A stretch of 60,880 nucleotides of DNA, counting the filler, from Sanchytrium tribonematis (lineage: Eukaryota): the NCBI GenBank assembly GCA_018985235.1. It is 8 parts of 8 records of this genome, joined end to end, with 100 filler letters (N's around TTAATTAATTAA, not from the genome) between each part and the next. Parts side by side here need not be neighbours in the genome. Positions count along the whole stretch, not along the records: positions 15,458 to 23,027 come from JADGIG010000429.1; 7 more parts are not named here. One strand, written 5' to 3'. The notes under the pieces are model-generated. The model was not told the DNA's origin, did not search any database, and saw only the letters and a program-made list of their open reading frames with translations. The translations under genes were made by a program, and so were the position numbers. Position 1 is the first letter of the stretch. The number at the start of each line of letters is the position of its first letter. Positions 7,646 through 53,071 of the stretch are shown here, piece by piece.

Positions 7646-7745
7646 NNNNNNNNNNNNNNNNNNNNNNNNNNNNNNNNNNNNNNNNNNNNTTAATTAATTA
7701 ANNNNNNNNNNNNNNNNNNNNNNNNNNNNNNNNNNNNNNNNNNNN
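7646..7745. other. Artificial contig spacer
   Basis: N44-TTAATTAATTAA-N44 (six-frame stop linker). Confidence 0.99.
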
Positions 7746-12500: not shown

Positions 12501-14082
12501 ATGTTCCGATCTCTGGTTCGCAATGCAATTGCAAAATCAAAAGAGCAACAAATGATCTCAAGAATTAAAGCCAAACAAGATGCTTCAAAGCTCGGTGGTG
12601 GATCAGCAGCTATTGAAAAACAACATTCTAAAGGAAAATTAACTGCTCGAGAAAGAATTTATTTACTTCTTGATAATAATTCTTTTTCAGAAACTGATAT
12701 GTTGGTTGAGCACGATTGCAATGACTTTGGAATGGAAAATAAGAAGTTTCCTGGCGATGGAGTTGTTACAGGAAGTGGTACAATCAATGGGCGGCCTGTT
12801 TATGTTTTCTCTCAAGATTTTACAGTATTTGGAGGCTCGCTGTCTAAAACACATGCTCAGAAGATTTGCAAAATTATGGACCACGCAGTACAAAATCAAT
12901 GTCCTATTATTGGATTGAATGATTCGGGTGGGGCCAGAATTCAAGAGGGAGTTGATTCCCTTGCCGGATATGCTGATATTTTCTTAAAAAATGTTTTAAG
13001 TAGTGGTGTTGTACCTCAGCTTTCAATGATTACAGGACCTTGTGCTGGTGGTGCTGTTTATTCCCCTGCATTGACAGATTTTACTTTTATGGTACGAGAC
13101 ACCTCTCATCTTTTCGTTACTGGACCAGATGTAGTCAAAGCCGTAACAAATGAGGTGGTTTCCTTTGAAGAACTTGGTGGGGCATCTGTTCATACCAGCA
13201 AATCTGGAGTTGCCCATCTAGCTTTTGAGAATGATATTGAAGCTATGGCTAAACTCAGAGAATTTTTTGACTTTTTACCTCTGAGCAACAAGCATCAACC
13301 TCCGATTAAATATACCTCTGATCCAATTGATAGGGCAGATAATGCTCTGGATATTATAGTACCAGCAGATTCCTCAAAAGCCTATGACATGAAGCATGTT
13401 ATAACCAGAATAGTTGACGATGGTAATTTCTTTGAAATTATGCCCAATTACGCAAAAAATATGATTATAGGCTTCTCAAGAGTATTTATAAATAATGTAG
13501 ATGAATGGGCAAACAGTCGGAATTGTCGCAAATCAGCCTAATATTTCTTCTGGTGTTTTGGACATCAATTCTTCAATCAAAGCTGCAAGATGGGTAAGAT
13601 TTTGCGATGCTTTCAACATTCCAATTTTAACATTCGTGGATGTTCCTGGATTTCTTCCTGGCGTTGCTCAAGAGCATAATGGCATTATTCGACATGGTGC
13701 TAAGCTTTTGTACGCATATGCTGAAGCTACTGTCCCTAAAATTACAATTATCACAAGAAAGGCATATGGAGGAGCATATGATGTTATGAGTAGTAAACAT
13801 CTACGAGGAGACGTCAATTACGGCTGGCCTACCGGTGAAATTGCAGTAATGGGAGCTAAAGGTGCAGTCGAAATTATTTTTAGAAAAGACAAAAATATCG
13901 CACAACAAGAAAAGGAATACACTGAAATTTTTGCAAATCCACTGCCCGCAGCACAAAGAGGTTTTCTTGACGACGTTATAATGCCAAAAACTACGAGACA
14001 TAGAGTAATTAAGGACTTGAAAATCTTAAGAAACAAACAGTTGAAAAATCCATGGAAAAAGCACGGAAACATTCCTTTATAA
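12501..14082 (+). CDS. PCCB: Propionyl-CoA carboxylase beta chain; exons 12501-13481 and 13501-14082
   Basis: [44 protein letters not shown]; splice joins [17 protein letters not shown]. Confidence 0.95.
13482..13500 (+). other. 19-nt intron (gtatttataaataatgtag)
   Basis: Joins two PCCB ORFs in frame at a conserved site. Confidence 0.93.
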
Positions 14083-14087
14083 ATAGT

Positions 14088-15357
14088 TTACTCTTGGTAT
14101 TTTCTAGCTCTTCCTCTTCTTACAGTTTTAGGAGTTGCCTTTGCCCAACTAGAAGGGAGACGTCTTCGACCACTTTTTTGTGTATCTCTAACACTAACGG
14201 TTTCTGACACTACACTTGAATCCTCTTGGGTGGCTTGAACTTGCTCTTCAGCATCATCGCTACTGACTATAATTACTTCATCAAGCTTTTTCTTTTTAGT
14301 CGCTGGCTTTTTACTAGCCAGAGCTCTGGTTTTTCTTTTGACTGGTGGCGGTTTGAAATTTTCTGTTTCTTCGTCACTACTACTTAGACCGATTTGTGGA
14401 ATTTCAGGTTTATCCACCTCCATATGCGCAGTATTAGGTGTATCGGGCTTTTTTAATTCTCCGTCATCAAGCCTCATTTCTTTGAATCCGGATTGTATTT
14501 CCTTGTCTATAAATGACATTTGAGAGCGAACAAGATCTGATAATCCATCATCCTCCTGTGACTCTATTATACTCTCATTATTCTCCATTTTCACTGTGAG
14601 AGACAGAACTCTTTCTCGAGAGAGTTTCAACATCCTTGATATCACTTTTTCGAGAGTGTCTTTTTCTTCTCTGCGTATGCACACCTCAATGGTGTCAGTC
14701 AATCTTTCAGACGGAAGCATTTTCAAGTCTGGTGATAGTCCAGCGATGATGTCAGCCATTTTAATGTCTTTTTCAACTTCTTCGTTAATTACTATCCCAG
14801 AGTTTCCATTTCGTATTATCTGTTTTCGTTTTTTGACAAATGAGACGCAGGTGAGTGGATTTGCAACATATTTGATTTGCTTTGCTAATCTTTGAGGATG
14901 TATGGGATCGAGAATTTCATCTTGCATCAATATGCTTAGTCGAATAATTGGCCAAGTTTCTTTATTTTCGTAATCGATTCCTTCAATATTATCTCTTATA
15001 CGCACCACATTATCGATAACATTTTTCTCAAGAGCATCAGGCAAGCAATCCATAGATATTTGTTCATAAACGTATTCTCTGTTTGGTAAATTAAATCTTT
15101 CGAGTGAATATTCGTTTGGACCTAATACAGTCAAAACATTTCCTTTTTTTAAGTGTGCCTCGTTAGGCTGGAGAGATGTCACAATACTTGATCCGGCCTG
15201 AAGAATATCAACATTGTCTAATTTTATAACTTCTGGTTCGCAAAAGTGTTCATGTCCCCAAAGCACGAAATTAATGAAATTGGGAAGTAACTCTTCAGGT
15301 AAATATCTCTTGGCAAAGTGGGTTCGGTTTTGATGAATCAACATAATAGAAAACATT
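14088..15357 (-). CDS. MRE11: Mre11 nuclease, 5'-truncated by a spacer
   Basis: IHQNR..YLPEELLP.F..VLWGHEH.C, GSSIVTSL..NE, PIIRL, YVANP. Confidence 0.88.
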
Positions 15358-15457: not shown

Positions 15458-15528
15458 CCAATTTAGGTGATTTGCTTCAAAAATGGTTTGATCCTATTTG
15501 TACATTCCATTGACAATGTGACCCCTTG

Positions 15529-16308
15529 ATGTTGATTGTATTTTTACATCTATTTGCATTTCCCACATTGACCAATCCACCCAGTTCATCCAAAAATGGA
15601 ATGATTGCAGATTACGTTGTAAACATATTACAGGACTTCGTAATAAGTGGAACATGTAGTTTTAAATCACTTGGACCAATTATATCAATGATTCAGTTTT
15701 TGAGATCAAAGCGGGACTCACTGGTGGATCAGTACCAATGCAAAGCTTCTTCTTCTTGCGGACAATTGTTCATTAAAAATTTGTTCAATGATTTTGATTA
15801 TGAATCGCCAATGGTTTTTAAAAGAACCAATAGTCGATTAACAAAATCAACTAACTTAGATAGAGAATCAAAACAAAATATATTGATAAATTTAAACTTG
15901 TTTTTTCGTATGTGGGACATCTTCGATTCTACATCGAAATGGAATTTTGCAAACTATATAGGTGTACTATTAGAGTTTTTATCAGAAGATCGTGTGATAC
16001 TTCATTCGAAAATAACTATTTTGTTGACTTTTATCAAACAATTTGAAATCATTCCCACAAATATTTTTGTTTACAAAATGAATCCGCTAATCAACGAATA
16101 CGGTTTGGATACGGATTATCACTTTGTTCATTCTGATGTTGTATTGGGGCTTTCTACAAAACACTTACTTGTATCAAAATATGTTCATCCGGACCATTAT
16201 TTAATGGATAAAGCACTAAATGAGTTAAAACTATTTGTAGGATCTCTTGAAGTTGACAATTTGACTTCTCGATTTTACTATTTCATAAAATCAAAACTAG
16301 GTGAATGA
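15529..16308 (+). CDS. Hypothetical, probably secreted protein
   Basis: 259-codon ORF; short hydrophobic leader MLIVFLHLFA; no recognised motif. Confidence 0.55.
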   Translation: MLIVFLHLFAFPTLTNPPSSSKNGMIADYVVNILQDFVISGTCSFKSLGPIISMIQFLRSKRDSLVDQYQCKASSSCGQLFIKNLFNDFDYESPMVFKRTNSRLTKSTNLDRESKQNILINLNLFFRMWDIFDSTSKWNFANYIGVLLEFLSEDRVILHSKITILLTFIKQFEIIPTNIFVYKMNPLINEYGLDTDYHFVHSDVVLGLSTKHLLVSKYVHPDHYLMDKALNELKLFVGSLEVDNLTSRFYYFIKSKLGE

Positions 16309-16370
16309 CAAAATTAATTCATCAAACAATAAATGAATAATCAATTTATTTTTTGCGACACTCCTTCAAA

Positions 16371-17369
16371 ATGATTAAAATCATGTCTTATAATATTTTA
16401 TCACCCCAAATTGCATCTAAAATGTCATACATGTATAAAAATTGCATATTAGAGAATAGATTTCCACGTATTATTGATAAAATATTAAAAATGAACCCTG
16501 ATGTATTATTTTTACAAGAAGTTGAATTAGATCAATTTACCCATTTAAAATCTATATTATCAGATTATTATGGTGATTATCAACAACGACTATCAAATCC
16601 AGATGGATGTGCTACATTTATCAAGCATCATTTGAAATTAAAGTATTTTAAACCCATTTTATTAAATATTCCAAATTCAATATCCAATCGAAATAATGTG
16701 TGTTTATTACATTTAATTGAATGTAATCATGAATTATTAGTATTAGCCAATACCCATATATTATATAATCCAAAAAGAGGCTATATTAAAGCATCTCAAA
16801 TTATTCAAATAAATAATGAAATTTTTAATTTAATGGATCAATTCAACTGCAAATCATCCCCAATTCTATTTGGTGGTGATTTTAATTTGAGTCCATCTAG
16901 TGCATTATATGAATTGATTACAAATGGGCATGTGAATTTACAAATGATTCCTGAGCATCAATTATCCAATCAACTCTCTACTCCAAAATCATCCCTCTCT
17001 ACATCATTAACCATTCCATGTATCATTCCTGATGATTTATATTTGCCATTTATTTATAAATCAGCGTATTTAGACCAGCATGATTATTTTACACAAGATT
17101 TGAAGAGTAAAAATGGATTTCATGGATTATTTGTTGATTTTATATTTTATGGGCATTTAAACAAGGATTATAAGCCAGTACGTGTTGATGGAATGTATCA
17201 ATCACTCAGTAGTGAATTAGAATGGAATGAGCCTCATGAAACTGTAAAATCATTAAAATGTGTTAAAATTGGAGAATTGACCCATCCATCAGCATGTGTA
17301 TCCATGCCACATCAAAATGAACCATCTGATCATTTCAGTGTGTATGCCGAATTTGTATTTAATCAATAA
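16371..17369 (+). CDS. CCR4/nocturnin/Angel-family EEP phosphoesterase
   Basis: MSYNIL, LFLQEVE, DGCATF, ANTHILYNPKRG, GGDFN, VDFIFY, PSDHF. Confidence 0.88.
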   Translation: MIKIMSYNILSPQIASKMSYMYKNCILENRFPRIIDKILKMNPDVLFLQEVELDQFTHLKSILSDYYGDYQQRLSNPDGCATFIKHHLKLKYFKPILLNIPNSISNRNNVCLLHLIECNHELLVLANTHILYNPKRGYIKASQIIQINNEIFNLMDQFNCKSSPILFGGDFNLSPSSALYELITNGHVNLQMIPEHQLSNQLSTPKSSLSTSLTIPCIIPDDLYLPFIYKSAYLDQHDYFTQDLKSKNGFHGLFVDFIFYGHLNKDYKPVRVDGMYQSLSSELEWNEPHETVKSLKCVKIGELTHPSACVSMPHQNEPSDHFSVYAEFVFNQ

Positions 17370-17556
17370 TAAACTGCTTTATTCTCTCAAAATGACTTGC
17401 GCAACTTGGTAAAGGTAAACCTAATAATTCATTTATTTCCACCAATACAAGACTGGTAAACACTCTGTGTATAGCTTTGTAATGAGTTTATCTCATTTAA
17501 ATGATCCAATCTCTTTTAATTATTCATTTCTAATTATGTCTATTCATTAAAATCAA

Positions 17557-17586
17557 CCAATGAGTCTAAATGAGTTGTCTATTTAA
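17557..17586 (+). promoter_or_regulatory. CCAAT + CTATTTAA (TATA-like) promoter of peptide gene 1
   Basis: CCAAT at -52 and CTATTTAA at -30 from ATG, same spacing in all three paralogs. Confidence 0.65.
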
Positions 17587-17608
17587 AGAGCGTATTCCCA
17601 TTTAAATA

Positions 17609-17779
17609 ATGTTATTCATTTCATCTTTTATTTCTGCTATTGCTTTATCTGTTGATGGACAAACTTGTACTCAAGTGATTCAAGAACAACATCAAAATGG
17701 AATTATTGGGATTACGGAAGTGGCACATGCTACTGCAAATTGTGAATATGCACATTCACCTGCTTACAACAAGAAATAA
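17609..17779 (+). CDS. Small secreted two-Cys peptide, paralog 1 (56 aa)
   Basis: MLFISSFISAIALSVDGQTCTQVIQEQHQNGIIGITEVAHATANCEYAHSPAYNKK*; not in ORF track. Confidence 0.8.
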   Translation: MLFISSFISAIALSVDGQTCTQVIQEQHQNGIIGITEVAHATANCEYAHSPAYNKK

Positions 17780-18009
17780 ATGAATTTCAAGTTGCAATTT
17801 GATTTTGATGAATTGCATTTTAAAACTGGGAGTGACATTTGCAAATGGATTCAAATTTGATTGCATTATACGTCATTGCTTTCGTTGACTGATGATCATG
17901 ACAATTTTGGTCGCTAAATTGTTCCATATATTATCAGGTCTAGCTCATTTTATTTGCACCAATGTCAGCACTTTTCCATATTTCTATTTATCAGGTAATG
18001 AAACTCGAA

Positions 18010-18039
18010 CCAATAGCTGTAGGACTGCTGGCTATTTAA
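18010..18039 (+). promoter_or_regulatory. CCAAT + CTATTTAA promoter of peptide gene 2
   Basis: Same -52/-30 spacing. Confidence 0.65.
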
Positions 18040-18061
18040 ACAGACTGATTCTTTTACATTA

Positions 18062-18235
18062 ATGTTATTCATTACATCCATTGCTGCGCTTCCAACTCCA
18101 ATGACTGTTGAAGATTGCCAAAGAATCATGAATAATGCTGTTAGGAAAGGTATCTTGAGTGTCACTAACAAGAATGTTTTTATTGCGAATTGTGAATACA
18201 AATTCACTCCAGAATACAACTCTGGTAAAAAATAA
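18062..18235 (+). CDS. Small secreted two-Cys peptide, paralog 2 (57 aa)
   Basis: MLFITSIAALPTPMTVEDCQRIMNNAVRKGILSVTNKNVFIANCEYKFTPEYNSGKK*; not in ORF track. Confidence 0.85.
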   Translation: MLFITSIAALPTPMTVEDCQRIMNNAVRKGILSVTNKNVFIANCEYKFTPEYNSGKK

Positions 18236-18420
18236 ATCGATATTTGGCAAATTGACAGTAACAAGTGAATCAATTTTCAAAAAAGTATCTTTCATTGTTA
18301 AACAAGATGAACGAGATGAAAGATTTAACTATTTATTAATCCACTTTATGGGTTAATCGTTGTTGGCCAATGAGTTGAAATTAAAAAGTTTATGACAATT
18401 TAATAATTCATATAATTGGA

Positions 18421-18450
18421 CCAATAACTGTAAATGAGTTGGCTATTTAA
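18421..18450 (+). promoter_or_regulatory. CCAAT + CTATTTAA promoter of peptide gene 3
   Basis: Same -52/-30 spacing. Confidence 0.65.
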
Positions 18451-18472
18451 GCAGACTATTCCCAATAGAATC

Positions 18473-18646
18473 ATGTTATTCATTTCAATGATTGCAGCTA
18501 TTCCATTTCCAATGTCAGTTGAAGACTGTCAAAATATCATGAACAGAGCAGTGAATCAAGGTAATTTGGATGTGACCAATAAAAATGTCTTTACAGCAAA
18601 TTGCGAATACAAGTGGACACCAGAGTATAACCCGGATCAACAATAA
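18473..18646 (+). CDS. Small secreted two-Cys peptide, paralog 3 (57 aa)
   Basis: MLFISMIAAIPFPMSVEDCQNIMNRAVNQGNLDVTNKNVFTANCEYKWTPEYNPDQQ*. Confidence 0.85.
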   Translation: MLFISMIAAIPFPMSVEDCQNIMNRAVNQGNLDVTNKNVFTANCEYKWTPEYNPDQQ

Positions 18647-18732
18647 ATCAATTTTTAGCCAATTTTTGTTAAAATGCTTGTAAAATACTTGTAATCATGG
18701 ATGATAACGGCAATCAATTTATTAATAATTCA

Positions 18733-18939
18733 CTAATCCATGACTCTATTGGGTATTTTACTAAAGATACTCGATTTAGAATTCTGTAATCCAATTACAA
18801 CCAATTCTTCCTCTTGATCATCAGATATATATTTATCATGACTCCATTTGTCTACTTTTTCGCATCTGGAGTGTTTGCTCTTCTTTTTCATTAATTTAGG
18901 TTTGTTTGAGTGGACCATTTGATGATCTTGTTTCATCAT
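18733..18939 (-). CDS. Possible small basic protein with a KWxHDKY motif
   Basis: DKWSHDKY resembles the WxHD motif of Btz/mRNP-export factors; short, weak support. Confidence 0.3.
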   Translation of the reverse strand: MMKQDHQMVHSNKPKLMKKKSKHSRCEKVDKWSHDKYISDDQEEELVVIGLQNSKSSIFSKIPNRVMD

Positions 18940-19572
18940 CTCCAGTTTATTTATTTTTTCAAACCAATCAACCAAAATGAAATGATCAGACTGATTTGAA
19001 AATACAAGTGGGTCGTAATGTTTTAAGATGTCAAGGACGCATATAATATTGCCATAGATATGGCAGCGTAATTTCCTAATCTAATTGACATTAGAATTGT
19101 AAAGAACCAGATAAAATGTGTATATGTCCAATTTCATTTTTATATCTATTGAAATTTCATGTGCTATGACGCTGGTAGTCTATTTATCAGTAGTTATCAT
19201 AAACACACTCTAAATGAGATAAAATAAAATTTGCGACCTAAAAGATTCGAAGACAAAACTGGACACGGTTTTTTCCTTAAAAAGTTGAAGTTGCTGGATG
19301 TGCCCGGAGTTAAACTTTTATTTTTAATATTATCCTCAATTAACAAATTGTGTGAGATGGCCACTAGATATCAAAGATTTATTTTGCAATGTTAATGCCC
19401 GTGGAGATACTTGGTATTTGGTCATTTAGCGCCTTTGCTGCAAAATTGCCCCAATTGGTGTTGCTAATAAAAAATTATATCAATGGAATCAATTGATTGG
19501 ATAGCATCCACAAAGGAGGGCAAGGCACAAGTTGCAATTTACCCATAAAGACAATGAAAAACCCATTTCACA

Positions 19573-20739
19573 ATGCTTTTCATCTCTATCTTGTATGCGC
19601 AATCTGTAGCAGCATGTGCCAATCCACGTATTCGTAAAGAAATCACATTAATGACAGCTCAAGAAATCACAGATTTGAAGAATGGATTGGATGTTTTACA
19701 ACAAAGTGGCAGATTATCATGGTATGGTCAACGACATTCTGAATTATTTGAGATCATACATGGCAATAATGATTTCTTTCCATCTCATCGTGCATTTTTA
19801 TGGCAATTTGAAACAGAATTGAGAAATGCAAGTGGGAATCCAACATTAACCCTTCCATTTATTGACGAGGGATCTATTGCAGATCAATTTGGTACTCAAG
19901 TCTCTAATGGACTATCATTAATGAATCTAGGATCCATGAAAGGATGCGTTACAGGTGGATTATTAAAAAATTGGCAATCTGTTTATCCAGAACCACATTG
20001 CATCTCAAGAGATATTGATCCAACATCCGTATTACGTGGTAGAGCATTAATTGATAGTTTTATATCCACTACATTTGATTTTACAACATTTTCAAGCACA
20101 TTTGAGAATTCTATCCATAATGCATTTCATTTTTATATGGGTGGTGATATGGCTGAATCTTATAGTAGCAATGACCCTATTTTCTTTCTGCATCATGCAT
20201 TTAATGATTACATGGTCTTGCGATGGCAGTTGATTCACGGAGGTATCGCAAATTTGCCAACTGGCATCATGGGTGGCAAATTACTCCAAACAATGCCCAT
20301 CACAGTCTCACAAGCCATGTCCATGACTGGTATTTGTGTCCAATACCAAGATAAACCCACTGTCAATGCCCAATTGGCAAAAAGACAAGTCAATTACAAA
20401 GGATTATCCCCAGTATTAACCAATTTCAACCAATATCTCCCCAATAATCCAAAAAAGAGTGATTATTACAATGTATTATCACAACAAGCATCCAAATATA
20501 AAGCCAATCCATCCAATGCCACCCACACCAGTTGTTTACAAACTATTTTGGAATATCATCAGGGATCTTTAGTATTTTTACCCATTAATAAGCCCATTGA
20601 ACAAGATAAATTAAAGAAAATGAAGATTAGTGTGGCTAATGTCCAATTGGCATATGCAAATATGGATAATACTGCCAAACAATTGGCACAAGTTGGTCAT
20701 TTGCAATTATATGATGCCACCAAACGTGTTTATGTATAA
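19573..20739 (+). CDS. Secreted tyrosinase (type-3 di-copper)
   Basis: C..PRIRKE start; CuA H..(IH)..FFPSHR; CuB HNAFH..GGDM..SSNDPIFFLHH; KR site before a C-terminal domain. Confidence 0.92.
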   Translation: MLFISILYAQSVAACANPRIRKEITLMTAQEITDLKNGLDVLQQSGRLSWYGQRHSELFEIIHGNNDFFPSHRAFLWQFETELRNASGNPTLTLPFIDEGSIADQFGTQVSNGLSLMNLGSMKGCVTGGLLKNWQSVYPEPHCISRDIDPTSVLRGRALIDSFISTTFDFTTFSSTFENSIHNAFHFYMGGDMAESYSSNDPIFFLHHAFNDYMVLRWQLIHGGIANLPTGIMGGKLLQTMPITVSQAMSMTGICVQYQDKPTVNAQLAKRQVNYKGLSPVLTNFNQYLPNNPKKSDYYNVLSQQASKYKANPSNATHTSCLQTILEYHQGSLVFLPINKPIEQDKLKKMKISVANVQLAYANMDNTAKQLAQVGHLQLYDATKRVYV

Positions 20740-20750
20740 TAAATCATGTT

Positions 20751-21583
20751 TTATTGATTCCATTGACTTCTTTCTTCAATTTGTTCTGCTGTCATGGCAA
20801 CCAAACCTGATTTATCTCCACGATTTCCATTCCAAACTTTTGGAATCACACTGATGTGTTCCTCATTTCCAACAATTATTTTTTTGTTGATTTGTTTTTC
20901 AACCAAATCAATCCAATCCTTAAATGTCATAGTTAGTGGTTTGTTGTAAGTTCCATAATTTGGCATCCCATGATACATGTCATCACCTCTAGTAGACGAA
21001 ATAATCCATTGACCTCCACCAATTGCATCAATAAACACCACTGCCGGTGACATAAAAACAAAATTCGATCCAATATTGTAAAAAATTGGATACTCTTTCC
21101 TAATTGTAATTAACATTTCAAATAAAAAGACATATGCAGCAGAATCTAAAGCCAATCCCTTATTTCTGAGAATTCTCAGTAAATGATTACGATTTTTGAT
21201 GACAATTGTTGTAGGATCTCCTTTCTTCCATCTTCTTGTATTCAAACTAACTTTATGGTCGATTCCGAAATCATTATTGGATAAGTCACCATATTCCCTC
21301 TCCAATTTCTCATAAAGTCGTCTGCCAAATTCATCCACATCAATTCCTTCTATCAAGCTAGACTTTATTTCTTGATCAAAAATGTCTCGATTCCAAGGCA
21401 AAGTATGATCATCTCCACTATCCAACTGAGGTGCTTTAATGCGACGGTTATTGACAAATCTTCCCGAGCCGGTCATTCCCAAAGCAACATTATTGTTGGT
21501 GTTACTGGGGTTTGTTTGACCCGGAGCTAATCCATCATTTGATCCAACAATTTCAAACCAAACACTACCAATGCAAAGTACAT
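20751..21583 (-). CDS. Hypothetical protein whose likely leader (MYFALVVFGLK) is out of frame with the main ORF; pseudogene or spliced
   Basis: Long ORF ending in CAA-TAA-A. The ATG 21583 frame stops at 21527; its leader resembles that of the neighbouring gene. Confidence 0.5.
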
Positions 21584-21719
21584 TTGCAATTTGGGGGAAC
21601 GATGCCTCTTTTGTAGCCAATTAGGGGTTATTTGTACCCACACGTGGTACCCCTCATTCTTCACCCGTGTGACATCAAAAAACATGGGTCAAATCCATTC
21701 CCATTTTCAAATGTCAAAA

Positions 21720-22694
21720 TCATCCATTTATTGATAGCCATCTCCAAAAGGGGCGTAATTCCCATGGTAGCCATTTTTGAATCTCATTATTAGATGCACT
21801 AAATGTAAACTGAAATGGATCTTGAAATTTAATTGGCAAATCGTATTGATACATTGATATATCCAATTCTCCATTTCCAAATTCATCAATGAGTGCAAGA
21901 ATGACATTTAATTGTTGTTTTCTACTAGTGGGTCTATTTGTAAAGAATTTGATGGCAAATTGCTTTAATAAATTTGGCAAATCTTTTATATGATTTTTCA
22001 TGACTATCCCATATAAATCATTCATGACTGCTGTATAGACACCATTTTGAGTGAAATAAACCCCATTATTATCCATAGATGTCATAATAAGGGACCAAAT
22101 ACGATCCATTTCACCAAGTTTTAATGAATTTGATTTCAAATACTTAGAGAAATAAAACAGGGAGTTGACAGGACCAGCTGGTTCCAAATTACATAAAGTC
22201 GGGTTATAGTGATTTTTGAATAATACTTGCTGGAATATGAAAATATACATGGCTTCGATGCTTTCATAATGAATATGTAGCTCCTCTATTGTTGGAAATT
22301 TTACATTTCTAAATGTCGTAGATTTAGATCTCACTGCTCTGGCTTTAGCGACTGCTTGTTGTGCTGTTAATAAATCATCATTTGGAATTGGATTATGAGG
22401 AACATGCATATTCTTTGCAAATGCTTCCAATCCAATGTCCAATACATCTGGTGAATCAGTGCCTTGTTGAACCATTTTCTGTGCAGTGGCTTCTATTAGA
22501 CGGCCATGTTTCGTTAAAGGTCTAAAGTGATTTAGAGTTGTTGGAGAACTTATTTCTGTTTTCAAAGAGGGTGCAAATGCTATATCACTACTTGCGGATA
22601 CACTTGCTATATCACTACTTGCGGATACACTACCTTGCGGTACTCTAGTTACCTTAATTCCAAATACAATCAATGATAAAATGTACAGTCCCAT
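21720..22694 (-). CDS. Hypothetical secreted protein
   Basis: 324-aa ORF; leader MGLYILSLIVFG; low-complexity N-terminus. Confidence 0.6.
   Translation of the reverse strand: MGLYILSLIVFGIKVTRVPQGSVSASSDIASVSASSDIAFAPSLKTEISSPTTLNHFRPLTKHGRLIEATAQKMVQQGTDSPDVLDIGLEAFAKNMHVPHNPIPNDDLLTAQQAVAKARAVRSKSTTFRNVKFPTIEELHIHYESIEAMYIFIFQQVLFKNHYNPTLCNLEPAGPVNSLFYFSKYLKSNSLKLGEMDRIWSLIMTSMDNNGVYFTQNGVYTAVMNDLYGIVMKNHIKDLPNLLKQFAIKFFTNRPTSRKQQLNVILALIDEFGNGELDISMYQYDLPIKFQDPFQFTFSASNNEIQKWLPWELRPFWRWLSING
22578..22631. repeat. Perfect 27-bp tandem duplication (SVSASSDIA x2)
   Basis: tgctatatcactacttgcggatacact occurs twice in succession. Confidence 0.95.
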
Positions 22695-23027
22695 GTTTGG
22701 AGGGATCCAATTTCCAATTGCAAAATAGGAGATGATTTGTACCCACTCCTGTTTTAGTTATAATATTTATTATTAAGTCCAATTCATATTCTTACCACCC
22801 TTGTTAACACCCATTAATTCTTGAATTCTCGTAATTCTAAATGAGTCAAATTTACAATGTATTCAAAATCGCACCCTGATTGGTCACAAATTTCACTGTT
22901 GTTTTTTTAATCAAATCCCCATGTGTGATCATCAAATCAACATCTCCCACTCTAATATTCAATAACTTATTAAATGGAATCACTAAAATCTCTTCAAATT
23001 TATTCAATCTGCGAGTCAATTGAAGTT

Positions 23028-49232: not shown

Positions 49233-49733
49233 TCAGTACATAAGTTCAATTTTTGCAGTAGGATGATTTGATGCCATGTACGTCTTGGAAAATTCTTCAA
49301 ATTCAGCCTTGACGTTTCCAATTTTGGTGACTTGAAAATTTCCAATAGGGCAGACAGCATCTTCACAATTTGGACCTGGTTGAACACCAGTCAATTCTTT
49401 ATATGCCGGTATTGAAATATCATGAGCACTACCATTGTCTAAAACTACTAGGGTGACCGATTTTCCGTTAAAGGTGTACTGTTCCACATCATAGCAGTTT
49501 CCGCCACCTTTCACCAGAAATCCTTTTGATTGAGCAAAAGCCCAAACCAATTGGATATCTAAGATGCCTCCCTCGCTGGTTTTAACCAAATCACAACCAC
49601 CATATCCTGCGGCTAATGCTGATGCAGCATTATATGTATTATGACAAGTCAAACCACCCGGTATTTGACTGTTACCAAGTGCAGCAATGCATGCAGCTTC
49701 TTGTGGAATTGAAAAGAAAACAGGAAAAAACAT
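49233..49733 (-). CDS. Small secreted Cys-rich protein, DPBB (cerato-platanin/barwin/expansin-like)
   Basis: GNCY...TFNGKSVTLVVLD...HDISIPAYKELTG; 6 Cys; leader MFFPVFFS. Confidence 0.55.
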   Translation of the reverse strand: MFFPVFFSIPQEAACIAALGNSQIPGGLTCHNTYNAASALAAGYGGCDLVKTSEGGILDIQLVWAFAQSKGFLVKGGGNCYDVEQYTFNGKSVTLVVLDNGSAHDISIPAYKELTGVQPGPNCEDAVCPIGNFQVTKIGNVKAEFEEFSKTYMASNHPTAKIELMY

Positions 49734-50043
49734 TTATAACAAACAATACATTGCTTTCTTATATACCCAATTACTGGGTCACTTGACTTGATTACATGAT
49801 CGATGCCATAAAACTTTGGCGAAGATCAGCAAACAGATCACTCTCATGATTTGTAAACGTCGAAACGTTACATGATCTGTTTCTAGGTTTGGGTGTCTTC
49901 GTTTTCATTCGTGATAGCCACCACGATAGAATCTATGATAAATAAATTAGCATCACTATGATCTTGATTTCAACTTTTATAATGAAACTTGACGGAATTT
50001 CAAGTGTTAAATTTAATAGTTTCTCAAATTTTAACAAAATTTA

Positions 50044-50637
50044 TTAAAAGAATGAGAGTGCCAAAAGTCCTAATGTCATAATAATAGCTGAAGCCCCTGC
50101 CGTCGTTGTCACTGCTGGTGTAGCTGCTTGAGTTGTTGTAGCAGATTGTGATTGCATGGCTGGAGTGGTGGAATTACCAGCAAGATAATAAGCAACAGTA
50201 TTGGTTGGAGTCAAAGTAGTTGTGGCGGATGATGGAAGTGCAGAACATTGCTCATTCGCACCAGTAGGACCGAAGCAGGTGCTATTAGTATCACACACTT
50301 GAACACCAGTAATTGTGATTCTCATATCTGAATGACTACCTACTGCTGATGCCGTGACTACTACAGTGCTCAAGGAAGTTGTATTTAGGGTCACCCCACT
50401 TTTGATTTGATTTTCTGACACAGCCATGGTCCAATCAGTATTTTGTTGAATATCCAAATGTGAGATGGCCACATTTGCTGTATAAGCTATTTTGAATACT
50501 TGACCATTTGCATTATAAGTTGGTGAGAAGTTGAAAGTTTCTTGGACAGTTGTTACATCATTTGTGTTTTCAATAATTCCATAATTACAGGTAACAACAG
50601 GTGGATATGGAACAGCACTTACAATTTGAAGAAGCAT
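50044..50637 (-). CDS. Putative GPI-anchored Thr-rich surface protein
   Basis: Leader MLLQIVSA, Cys-containing domain, T/A-rich stalk, C-terminal AGASAIIMTLGLLALSFF. Confidence 0.75.
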   Translation of the reverse strand: MLLQIVSAVPYPPVVTCNYGIIENTNDVTTVQETFNFSPTYNANGQVFKIAYTANVAISHLDIQQNTDWTMAVSENQIKSGVTLNTTSLSTVVVTASAVGSHSDMRITITGVQVCDTNSTCFGPTGANEQCSALPSSATTTLTPTNTVAYYLAGNSTTPAMQSQSATTTQAATPAVTTTAGASAIIMTLGLLALSFF

Positions 50638-50769
50638 CAGCTGGCTGATTTGTGGATTTTTTACCTTTATATACTTTTGAGTCCGTGCGCAGGTCACATG
50701 GAAATGGCTAATTGGTCCTTTAAGCTCAGAAATTTTTTATACATCTTATTTTCTTAATATAAAATTTAT

Positions 50770-51646
50770 TTATAAAATCATAAATAGCGCAACTATTGAT
50801 AAAATCCCACAAGAGATAGAAGTAGCTGAATTGATGCCTGTTTCTGTAGCTTTTGGGATACTTTCAAACAATGACATTTGTGAGGCGTAACTCAAGTAAG
50901 AATTCAACAAGGTGTTTTCTACAGGAACAGCGGTCTAAATTAGAAGAAATTACATCTGTATTAACTTCGCTTTCCGTGGACTCAATTTGGCTTTCTACAG
51001 ATTGGAGCAAAAGTGTGGAGGCACTTTCCATATCTGTTTGTGTGTTACTTGCATAAGTGTTTGATGTCCAAATATTTGTCCAAGGCTCTGCAACGCTGCT
51101 AGAAATAGTTGATTGTAAAGTGGTGTGGCCTTGGATTTCTTTAGTATCTATCTCGCTACTTGAGATGTCTAAAGAATTTTTATTTGTAGCATCGAGTGAT
51201 GTTGCAGTGCTTGTGGCTTCTGGTATTGATACGGTGACACTATCCGAAATGTCAAAGGCCGAACTACTTGATGAAACAACCATTTGAAAAGTACTTGAAG
51301 TTGATGTGTCTACCAGTACAGTGGTTGACATTTGAGATGTGTTTAACTCGCTCGAAGACGAATCTTGGCTAGTAGTCCCAATCGCATCAATGGTGGATGA
51401 TGTTTCAGAAAGTTCAGAGGATGTATCAATCTGGATCGTGCTTGTGCTGACTGTAGATTCAATAGTGGTGTAAACCCAAGTGGAAGATTCTAAAGCAATT
51501 TCAGTTGTAGAAGCAAACTCAATGATGGAGGAGCTTGATTCCATATTCCAAATTAAATTGGAGGAGGTGCTTGATTCAATCGCGTCACTTTCTCCAGCAC
51601 TAAACAATAAACTGCTAATGTCTAAACCGTATACAATCGCGAGCAT
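50770..51646 (-). CDS. Putative GPI-anchored Ser/Thr-rich mucin-like protein; exons 51646-50954 and 50934-50770
   Basis: S/T-rich body; splicing gives C-terminal NSATSISCGILSIVALFMIL*. Confidence 0.75.
50935..50953 (-). other. 19-nt intron (gtaatttcttctaatttag)
   Basis: Contains CTAAT branch-like motif; removal yields a GPI-signal-like end. Confidence 0.8.
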
Positions 51647-51749: not shown

Positions 51750-53071
51750 ATGAGTTCTTCAACAAATGAAGAAGAAATACAGATGTTCAAAATAAAGAAA
51801 TTGGTTAGACATTTAACAGATGTAAGAGGGAATGGCACATCTATGATATCTTTAATTATGCCACCGAATACTCAATTACCGCTTATTACGAAAATGTTGG
51901 CAGATGAATACGGCACGGCCACGAATATAAAGAGCAGAGTCAACAAATTATCTGTTCTAGCTGCTATTACTAGTGCACAACAAAGACTTAAATTATATAA
52001 GGATATTCCTCCAAATGGATTGATTTTATACACGGGAACCATAGATGACCATGGTAAAGATAAAAAAGTTACAATTGATTTCGAACCATTTAAACCCATT
52101 AACACCAGTATGTATATGTGTGATAATAAATTTCACACAGAAGCTTTAAGTGAGTTGTTGACGAGCGATGATAAATTTGGATTTATTGTTATGGACGGTA
52201 ATGGATCTCTTTTTGGCACACTTTCTGGAAACGCACGTGAGATTTTGCAAAAAATTTCAGTAGAACTCCCAAAAAAGCACGGTCGTGGTGGTCAATCCGC
52301 GATGAGATTTGCGCGATTGAGAGAGGAAAAACGTCACAATTATGTTCGTAAAGTTTCTGAACTATCAGTCCAGAATTTTATCACCAATGATCAGCCAAAT
52401 GTCAGTGGTCTAATTTTAGCAGGAAGTGCTGATTTTAAAAATGTTTTGGAACAATCTGATTTATTTGATCCACGTCTTAAAGCAATTGTCATCAAGGTTG
52501 TAGACACAAGTTATGGTGGCGAGAATGGATTTAATCAAGCAATTACTTTGTCGCAAGAAGTTTTGTCAAATGTTAAATTTGTGCGAGAAAAGCAACTATT
52601 GGAAAAGTTTTTTGAGGAAATTTCAAAGGATACTGGCAAATATGTTTTTGGTGTAGACGACACTTTGAAGGGTCTCGATATGGGTGCTGTGGAAACTCTG
52701 ATTGTATTTGAAAATCTCGATGTTGAAAGGTTGATTTTTATTTATTTAGGTACCAAGTGAGAGATTCTAATGGCGCGGAGCAAATACTGATGCTGACACC
52801 CAGTCAAAAGCAAGAGCATAGTTTTAAGGATTCAGAAGGCAATGACCTCGAAATAATTGAGTCAGTCACTCTCGTCGAATGGCTTGCAGAAAATTACAAG
52901 AATTTTGGAACAACCTTGGAATTTGTTACCGATAAAAGTAGTGAAGGAAATCAATTTGTTAAAGGTATAGGTGGTATTGGAGGTATTTTGAGATATCAAG
53001 TTGACTTTACTGAGCTTGCAGCATATGACGAAGAGTCTGATGATTATTTTTCAGATGACGATTTCATTTAA
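51750..53071 (+). CDS. SUP45: Eukaryotic release factor 1; exons 51750-52729 and 52750-53071
   Basis: [23 protein letters not shown]; splice gives DVER|YQVRD. Confidence 0.97.
52730..52749 (+). other. 20-nt intron (gttgatttttatttatttag)
   Basis: Joins the eRF1 ORFs in frame. Confidence 0.93.

Follow-up and report, generated by a model that had tools for sequence, protein, structure and literature searches.

We report a tandem trio of small genes encoding paralogous peptides, each with two cysteines in a C-x24-C arrangement. These are almost certainly real genes, their products are probably secreted, and they represent a new protein family of a kind familiar among fungi. Our preferred, still tentative reading is that the trio comprises co-regulated, secreted, effector-type mini-proteins that would act where parasite and host meet, by binding a conserved extracellular target. 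It is possible, though somewhat doubtful, that the trio is the tip of a hidden micro-secretome of an algae-parasitizing phylum that has been little studied, in which stripped-down genes encode a new family of single-disulfide helical-hairpin effectors acting on the algal host. Orphan clusters of small secreted proteins are, as a class, ordinary in fungi, and the function given here to the trio is a proposal only.

The window (the whole stretch of DNA analyzed, 60,880 nt) consists of eight pieces of ~7.5 kb; the trio lies on the piece spanning 15458-23027, and genes beyond that piece are not linked to it. Spacers of the form N44-linker-N44 are found at 7646, 15358, 23028, 30613, 38196, 45777 and 53337, and several ORFs are cut at piece junctions, e.g. 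an Mre11 fragment ending at 15356. Besides the trio, its piece carries an exonuclease-endonuclease-phosphatase gene, a tyrosinase and three unknown ORFs, namely one of 259 aa and a pair on the minus strand. The genome is compact, and the GC content of the window is 34.8%. An excerpt of PMC8371127 describes sanchytrids as fast-evolving algal parasites with genomes of 10-11 Mb and a GC content of ~35%. The uL18 protein of the window is 57-62% identical to all named fungi among the matches listed; its identity to one EukProt protein is 88%, and to one ENA protein 85%. Judged by GC content, a long branch and the annotation format of its EukProt sister, the source organism is probably a sanchytrid algal parasite; the effector label depends on this parasitic habit, which we infer. 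Coordinates are collected in Table 1.

Table 1. Positions of the trio genes, their promoter boxes and other features in the window
Feature	Position	Strand	Remarks
Distal CCAAT box, copy 1	17506..17510	+	-103
Proximal CCAAT box, copy 1	17557..17561	+	-52
TATA-like box CTATTTAA, copy 1	17579..17586	+	-30
Copy 1	17609..17779	+	56 aa; diverged paralog; predicted leader 10-17 aa; TAA within AATAAA
Distal CCAAT box, copy 2	17959..17963	+	-103
Proximal CCAAT box, copy 2	18010..18014	+	-52
TATA-like box CTATTTAA, copy 2	18032..18039	+	-30
Copy 2	18062..18235	+	57 aa; predicted 9-aa leader, then two X-Pro dipeptides; predicted helical hairpin
Spacer between copies 2 and 3	18252..18351		Run X1 has two haplotypes here that differ by 23 substitutions and 10 gap letters
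Distal CCAAT box, copy 3	18367..18371	+	-106
Proximal CCAAT box, copy 3	18421..18425	+	-52
TATA-like box CTATTTAA, copy 3	18443..18450	+	-30
Copy 3	18473..18646	+	57 aa; predicted 9-aa leader, then two X-Pro dipeptides
Tyrosinase, neighbor of trio	19573..20739	+	PF00264, E 1e-26; short leader; outside the trio promoter layout
Short-leader ORF starts	5833, 19573, 53248, 33954	+	The sister-lineage protein P0054 starts likewise
Short-leader ORF starts	22694, 33762, 49733, 50637, 51646	-	

An earlier note on this DNA had described three paralogous ORFs of 56-57 aa starting at 17609, 18062 and 18473, and these were confirmed, with the C-x24-C spacing and the signature ANCEY-x3-P-x-YN both present in 3/3 copies. 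Copies 2 and 3 are close to one another, as had been stated, with 70% identity. Copy 1 shares 35-37% identity with them (tblastn within the window, E ~1e-7), yet keeps the Cys spacing, the central Gly and both Tyr. The alignment of the three copies contains 17 invariant columns, including both Cys, G31, T36, ANCEY, P51, Y53 and N54. Searches of the window with tblastn, hmmsearch and nhmmer returned these three copies only and no fourth. In run X1, only four records covered 17380-19000 at 80% likeness, all of them in place, and paralogs more diverged than that are invisible at 80%.

All three trio proteins, together with a 70-aa form of copy 3 beginning at an upstream ATG, were absent from a collection of 15 billion proteins, in which 6/6 longer window proteins queried were present (source EukProt). 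A 100-aa cut-off, the default of TransDecoder, would explain why genes of 56-57 aa lack annotation. According to an excerpt of PMC8371127, sanchytrid proteins were predicted on contigs with TransDecoder at default settings. The protein names of the EukProt sister follow the format of such TransDecoder-on-contigs predictions. The annotation gap is that real genes of less than 100 aa with ultra-short leaders are missing from the recorded proteome, and the secretome counts of the lineage are therefore probably too low.

Between copies 2 and 3, 22.5 synonymous differences were counted over 35.2 sites and 24.5 non-synonymous differences over 135.8 sites, which corresponds to a dS of 1.44, with silent sites near saturation, a dN of 0.21 and a dN/dS of 0.14 (Fisher p=4.7e-7). 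Differences at the three codon positions were 10/10/27 (chi-square p=0.002). The dN/dS comparison that the earlier note had recommended thus points to purifying selection. Values for copy 1 were 0.49 against copy 2 and 0.69 against copy 3 (39 codons), and its sequence has drifted further. A shifted or antisense frame was rejected as the selected unit, given that the other plus-strand frames are 36-38% identical and contain stops, and that a stop interrupts the antisense frame of copy 3.

The window was also aligned to contigs of run X1, which are possibly its own source and hence not independent. Over 17380-19000 there were 30 substitutions, with 0 in the 519 coding bases and 0 in the nine motif boxes; the substitutions fall in two blocks, which makes this a weak test (p from 1e-5 to 0.46 by block counting). 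The divergence in the spacer between copies 2 and 3 is far above that of the flanking genes and ends before both the coding sequences and the CCAAT boxes. Purifying selection and the lack of coding differences between haplotypes are a better fit to a conserved target or a structural role than to immune evasion. Another X1 contig shares sequence from 18949 onward, and one skips 53 nt at 19221-19275.

The start of CCAAT lies exactly 52 nt, and that of CTATTTAA exactly 30 nt, 5' of the ATG in 3/3 copies, in agreement with the spacing first reported for this locus. A second, distal CCAAT at -103, -103 and -106 in copies 1, 2 and 3 had been overlooked. The composite CCAAT-N17-CTATTTAA occurs three times in the window, on the plus strand only and always at a trio gene, against 0.009 occurrences expected by chance. 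The promoter motif bases are identical at 13/13 positions across the three copies, and the flanks from -130 to -71 share 20-37% identity. Because silent sites and flanks have decayed while the 13 motif bases remain identical, the promoter layout is itself under selection and not a mere leftover of duplication. We ascribe the exact spacing to duplication and to selection acting on a CCAAT+TATA core promoter of ordinary type. With purifying selection on copies 2 and 3 and 13/13 invariant motif bases, the proposal of a real, co-regulated family is well supported.

CCAAT (NF-Y/HAP) and TATA elements together are typical of regulated RNA polymerase II promoters. The trio resembles such promoters in the placement of CCAAT upstream of a TATA-like box and in its putatively secreted products, and the window is alike in that its housekeeping genes have no TATA box; the trio differs in that the TATA-like box lies close to the ATG, with a predicted near-absent 5' UTR. 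Since transcription initiates ~25-30 nt 3' of a TATA box, the predicted 5' UTR is a few bases long, and the in-frame ATG of copy 3 at 18434, which precedes CTATTTAA, is probably outside the mRNA. Six genes of the window have a TATA-like box 29-36 nt from the ATG, and their 5' UTRs would likewise be nearly absent. Among 40 long ORFs, a TATA-like box at -25 to -40 was found in three, all belonging to the 10 with a hydrophobic N-terminus, and in 0/30 others (Fisher p=0.012, where the three positive ORFs form one cluster at 49233-51646 and hence are not independent). This distribution fits the rule that TATA boxes generally mark regulated genes.

The stop codon embedded in AATAAA, to which the earlier note had drawn attention, was seen in 3/3 copies but is not special to them. 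In the 40 window ORFs of at least 150 aa, AATAAA embeds the stop in 11 and sits within -3 to +12 of it in 18, and such an AATAAA recurs throughout the genome. TAA terminates 31/40 long ORFs in the window. Some tandem gaps in the genome measure just 18-29 nt, which together with the TAA/AATAAA stops suggests that UTRs are minimal or that transcripts overlap; each copy of the trio is preceded by 237-282 nt.

The leaders of the trio are 9-10 residues long, hydrophobic and uncharged, and thus shorter than textbook signal peptides. Small residues at -3 and -1 are consistent with cleavage behind residue 9 (copies 2 and 3) or residue 10 (copy 1), and the paired X-Pro dipeptides of copies 2 and 3 stand right behind the predicted cut. 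Such dipeptides are trimmed by dipeptidyl aminopeptidases in other secreted peptides. Nine further ORFs of the window whose first 7-14 residues are uncharged and mostly hydrophobic were selected by eye: two tyrosinases, one protein with an Ig domain, one LRR protein and five unknown ORFs. Pro often occurs two places behind the likely cut in the short-leader proteins. Standard signal-peptide predictors may miss leaders of ~7-14 residues. The sister-lineage tyrosinase P0054 combines a 10-residue leader with a GPI-type C-terminus; as such a tail requires ER entry, this supports a secretory route for so short a leader. To judge from these sequences, very short leaders seem to be a general habit of the lineage's secretory proteins. 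The trio leader fits these short leaders, which makes the secretion proposed in the earlier note likely.

AF2, given mature copy 2 as a single sequence, predicted helices at residues 7-20, 25-38 and 41-44 (mean pLDDT 76.5, pTM 0.53), with a pLDDT of ~90 across residues 11-30. In this model Cys10 and Cys35 are symmetric about the turn, as the staple of an antiparallel hairpin needs. A three-sequence model of copy 1 was all-helical too (pLDDT 68.5). The invariant mature residues are placed mostly at the predicted disulfide end, and Gly and Thr would flank the turn. The models suggest that the peptides are likely disulfide-closed helical hairpins, and the disulfide loop postulated earlier becomes likely with the Cys pair set in register. 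Mature net charges are ~-2.0 in copy 1, ~+2.7 in copy 2 and ~-3.3 in copy 3, with pI values of 5.8, 9.1 and 4.3, and predicted helix 1 is amphipathic, with a hydrophobic moment of 1.9-2.0 in copies 2 and 3. Foldseek returned no match to the predicted fold at E<=0.001, and the best structural rows of VIA were generic helical pairs (Z 5.3, rmsd 3.8, 47 aligned); these searches stayed at a generic helical level and are not evidence of a new fold.

The absence of a recognizable family, remarked on in the earlier note, holds for every library searched. Pfam gave sub-threshold matches only, with no family at cut-off; NCBIfam matched 0/3 trio proteins, and the best E among PDB sequences was 0.18. A word-index search of proteins of 30-100 aa with the three-sequence alignment left 0/2 candidates confirmed. 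A full HMMER search over 1.84 billion representatives produced five matches at E<=0.001 and no true relative: all five were rejected as summed multi-stretch hits in unrelated repetitive proteins (tape measure, ankyrin and others), the best stretch scoring 5.7-11.8 bits. Confirmed pattern matches numbered 0/80 in JGI metagenomes, where the promoter pattern had 0 matches, 0/66 in viral contigs and 0/49 in prokaryote genomes. The ESM Atlas yielded no usable match, which shows neither absence nor novelty. Non-coding RNA was rejected as an explanation, as the single Rfam match lay outside the trio and scored 17.4 bits against a gathering score of 382. The lineage's small proteins are largely absent from libraries, and blank searches therefore say little of the family's true spread. 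Among the sanchytrid papers listed, none concerned secreted proteins or effectors, judged by title or start of abstract, and the main text of PMC8371127 contains neither "secreted" nor "effector" (0 occurrences). Literature listings on unusually short fungal signal peptides contained nothing for this lineage.

The trio is like the small secreted proteins of fungi in size (56-57 aa against a criterion of <200-300 aa), putative leader, tandem copies, promoter layout, lack of a Pfam family at cut-off, lineage restriction and even Cys number. It differs from them in having two Cys only, a 9-10-residue leader, purifying selection between paralogs, and a source organism that is probably a zoosporic algal parasite. 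Many definitions of "cysteine-rich" effectors require four Cys, and the two of the trio fall below this. The predicted Cys-closed helix-turn-helix of ~45 residues is similar to plant alpha-hairpinins and ciliate Er-type pheromones, but these have two or three disulfides, whereas one is predicted in the trio, and there was no PDB sequence match. Alpha-hairpinins are defined by the four-Cys motif C-x3-C...C-x3-C and hydrophobins by an eight-Cys pattern; the trio has C-x24-C only, i.e. two Cys. Fungal peptide pheromones carry either dibasic-flanked repeated cores (alpha-factor type) or a C-terminal CAAX (a-factor type), and the trio has neither; its dibasic sites are confined to the C-terminus of copies 1 and 2 and one RK in copy 2, with none in copy 3. 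A putative secretory leader, a Tyr-bearing peptide and a tyrosinase on the same contig are shared with the precursors of dikaritin/ustiloxin RiPPs, but those systems have Kex2-flanked and Kex2-processed repeated cores, which are absent from the trio, and a DUF3328 gene nearby, whereas none of the other five ORFs on the 7.6-kb contig piece is such a gene.

The tyrosinase lies 926 nt downstream of the trio on the same strand and contig. It is without the Pro-rich stalk and GPI-type tail present in both orthologs (P0054, P0055) and would therefore be soluble. Just two close relatives were found among 1565 candidates, one from EukProt and one from ENA. Within 130 nt it has no TATA-like box, and it has no CCAAT at -52, so that it is not under the trio promoter layout. 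The promoters thus gave no sign of co-regulation of trio and tyrosinase. A role of the trio as a tyrosinase chaperone ("caddie") was ruled out by size and because copies 2 and 3 contain no His. A lysine-rich ORF of 68 aa lies on the minus strand at 18733-18939, between copy 3 and the tyrosinase.

Candidate secreted effectors are usually lineage-restricted, tandem, small proteins with an even number of Cys and no Pfam family. Under the effector-type reading, all three genes would be co-induced in a single life stage, with an NF-Y/HAP-type CCAAT factor and TBP driving strong, stage-specific transcription. The mRNA would be very short, having a 5' UTR of a few bases and a poly(A) signal at the stop. 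The 9-10-residue leader would direct the peptide to the ER and be removed by cleavage behind Ala9 or Ala10, and in copies 2 and 3 the two X-Pro dipeptides might then be removed by a Ste13/DPP-IV-type peptidase, a class of enzyme that trims such dipeptides. The ~45-residue product would fold as a helix-turn-helix with a single disulfide staple and a short third helix. It is hypothesized that the invariant Cys pair, Ala-Asn-Cys-Glu-Tyr, Pro and Tyr-Asn at the disulfide end form a binding pole, and that variable helix faces and opposite charges tune the paralogs to related targets or compartments. The target would most likely be a host-wall or host-defence component encountered at encystment and penetration of the algal cell. 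Avirulence-type (arms-race) effectors are marked by diversifying selection, and the dN/dS of 0.14 between copies 2 and 3 is not of that kind; purifying selection, together with the absence of all 30 X1 substitutions from the coding sequences (a weak test), is a poor fit to a recognized, arms-race effector. An arms-race role, or one as cationic antimicrobials, is disfavored by the purifying selection and the mixed charges. For a different zoosporic parasite of algae, an excerpt of PMC8657485 describes up-regulated effector-like genes called by PHI-base similarity, which is context and not support.

The earlier note had offered four functions, of which the classical pheromone and the cationic antimicrobial are weakened, while the effector-type and the wall or adhesive roles remain. 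Rather unlikely, in our estimation, is that the trio encodes structural peptides of a coat or glue, produced in large amounts when the cell encysts or the sporangium wall forms, and Tyr-cross-linked by a secreted tyrosinase such as that at 19573. Each peptide has two invariant Tyr, a short-leader tyrosinase predicted to be soluble is close by, and a structural product driven by dosage would agree with the tandem copies, the strong core promoter and the purifying selection. DOPA glues, however, are Tyr-rich and repeated, whereas the trio has only two Tyr per peptide and no repeats; the tyrosinase stands outside the trio promoter layout, and the trio profile matches no part of the tyrosinases. 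At least one further tyrosinase start exists on another contig piece (53248, the gene being cut by the contig end), and the adjacency may therefore be chance. It is improbable that the peptides are signals (pheromones, quorum or zoospore-aggregation cues) for the fungus's own receptors. Small, leadered tandem paralogs would suit such a role, the X-Pro dipeptides of copies 2 and 3 recall DPP-processed propeptides, and the predicted small helical disulfide fold is near ciliate pheromones in size; but one disulfide is predicted and not three, dibasic-flanked repeats and a CAAX end are lacking, the haplotypes seen have no coding difference, and no receptor-like gene was found on the contig piece.

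Antimicrobial or competitor-suppressing peptides guarding the infected algal cell are a quite improbable alternative. The amphipathic helix 1 of copies 2 and 3 and the cationic copy 2 (pI 9.1) would be in keeping with this, but the net positive charge of cationic antimicrobials is found in 1/3 copies (+2.7 vs -2.0 and -3.3). Copies 1 and 3 are acidic, even though copy 3 is 70% identical to copy 2, and conservation is centered on an aromatic/polar pole and not on charge. It is highly improbable that the trio represents intracellular, non-secreted micro-proteins or non-functional duplicated DNA, to which a leader of just 9-10 residues and the lack of annotation might point. Non-functional DNA is excluded by the dN/dS of 0.14 and the invariant promoter boxes, and the invariant Cys pair and an N-terminus like that of the lineage's secretory enzymes favor the secretory route over an intracellular one.

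Almost nothing is known of the molecular basis by which zoosporic fungi attach to, enter and subdue algae. If the stripped-down design is true, it comprises a TATA box 30 nt from the ATG (a near-leaderless mRNA), a stop codon within the poly(A) signal, and a signal peptide of 7-10 residues with no charged n-region, which would rank with the shortest functional signal peptides of eukaryotes. Gene callers with a 100-residue cut-off would overlook genes of this design, as would signal-peptide predictors. Peptides of ~45 residues make chemical synthesis and direct tests on host cultures feasible, even without parasite genetics.

A second cluster, at 49233-51646 on the minus strand, consists of three unrelated short-leader ORFs (166, 197 and 260 aa), each having its TATA box 32-36 nt upstream of the ATG, and the 166-aa ORF has a sub-threshold match to cerato-platanin (E 0.075). 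Elsewhere in the window, frame breaks at 13480-13500 and near 52755-52790, within conserved genes that are presumably those for a carboxylase beta subunit and eRF1, resemble introns of ~19-30 nt.
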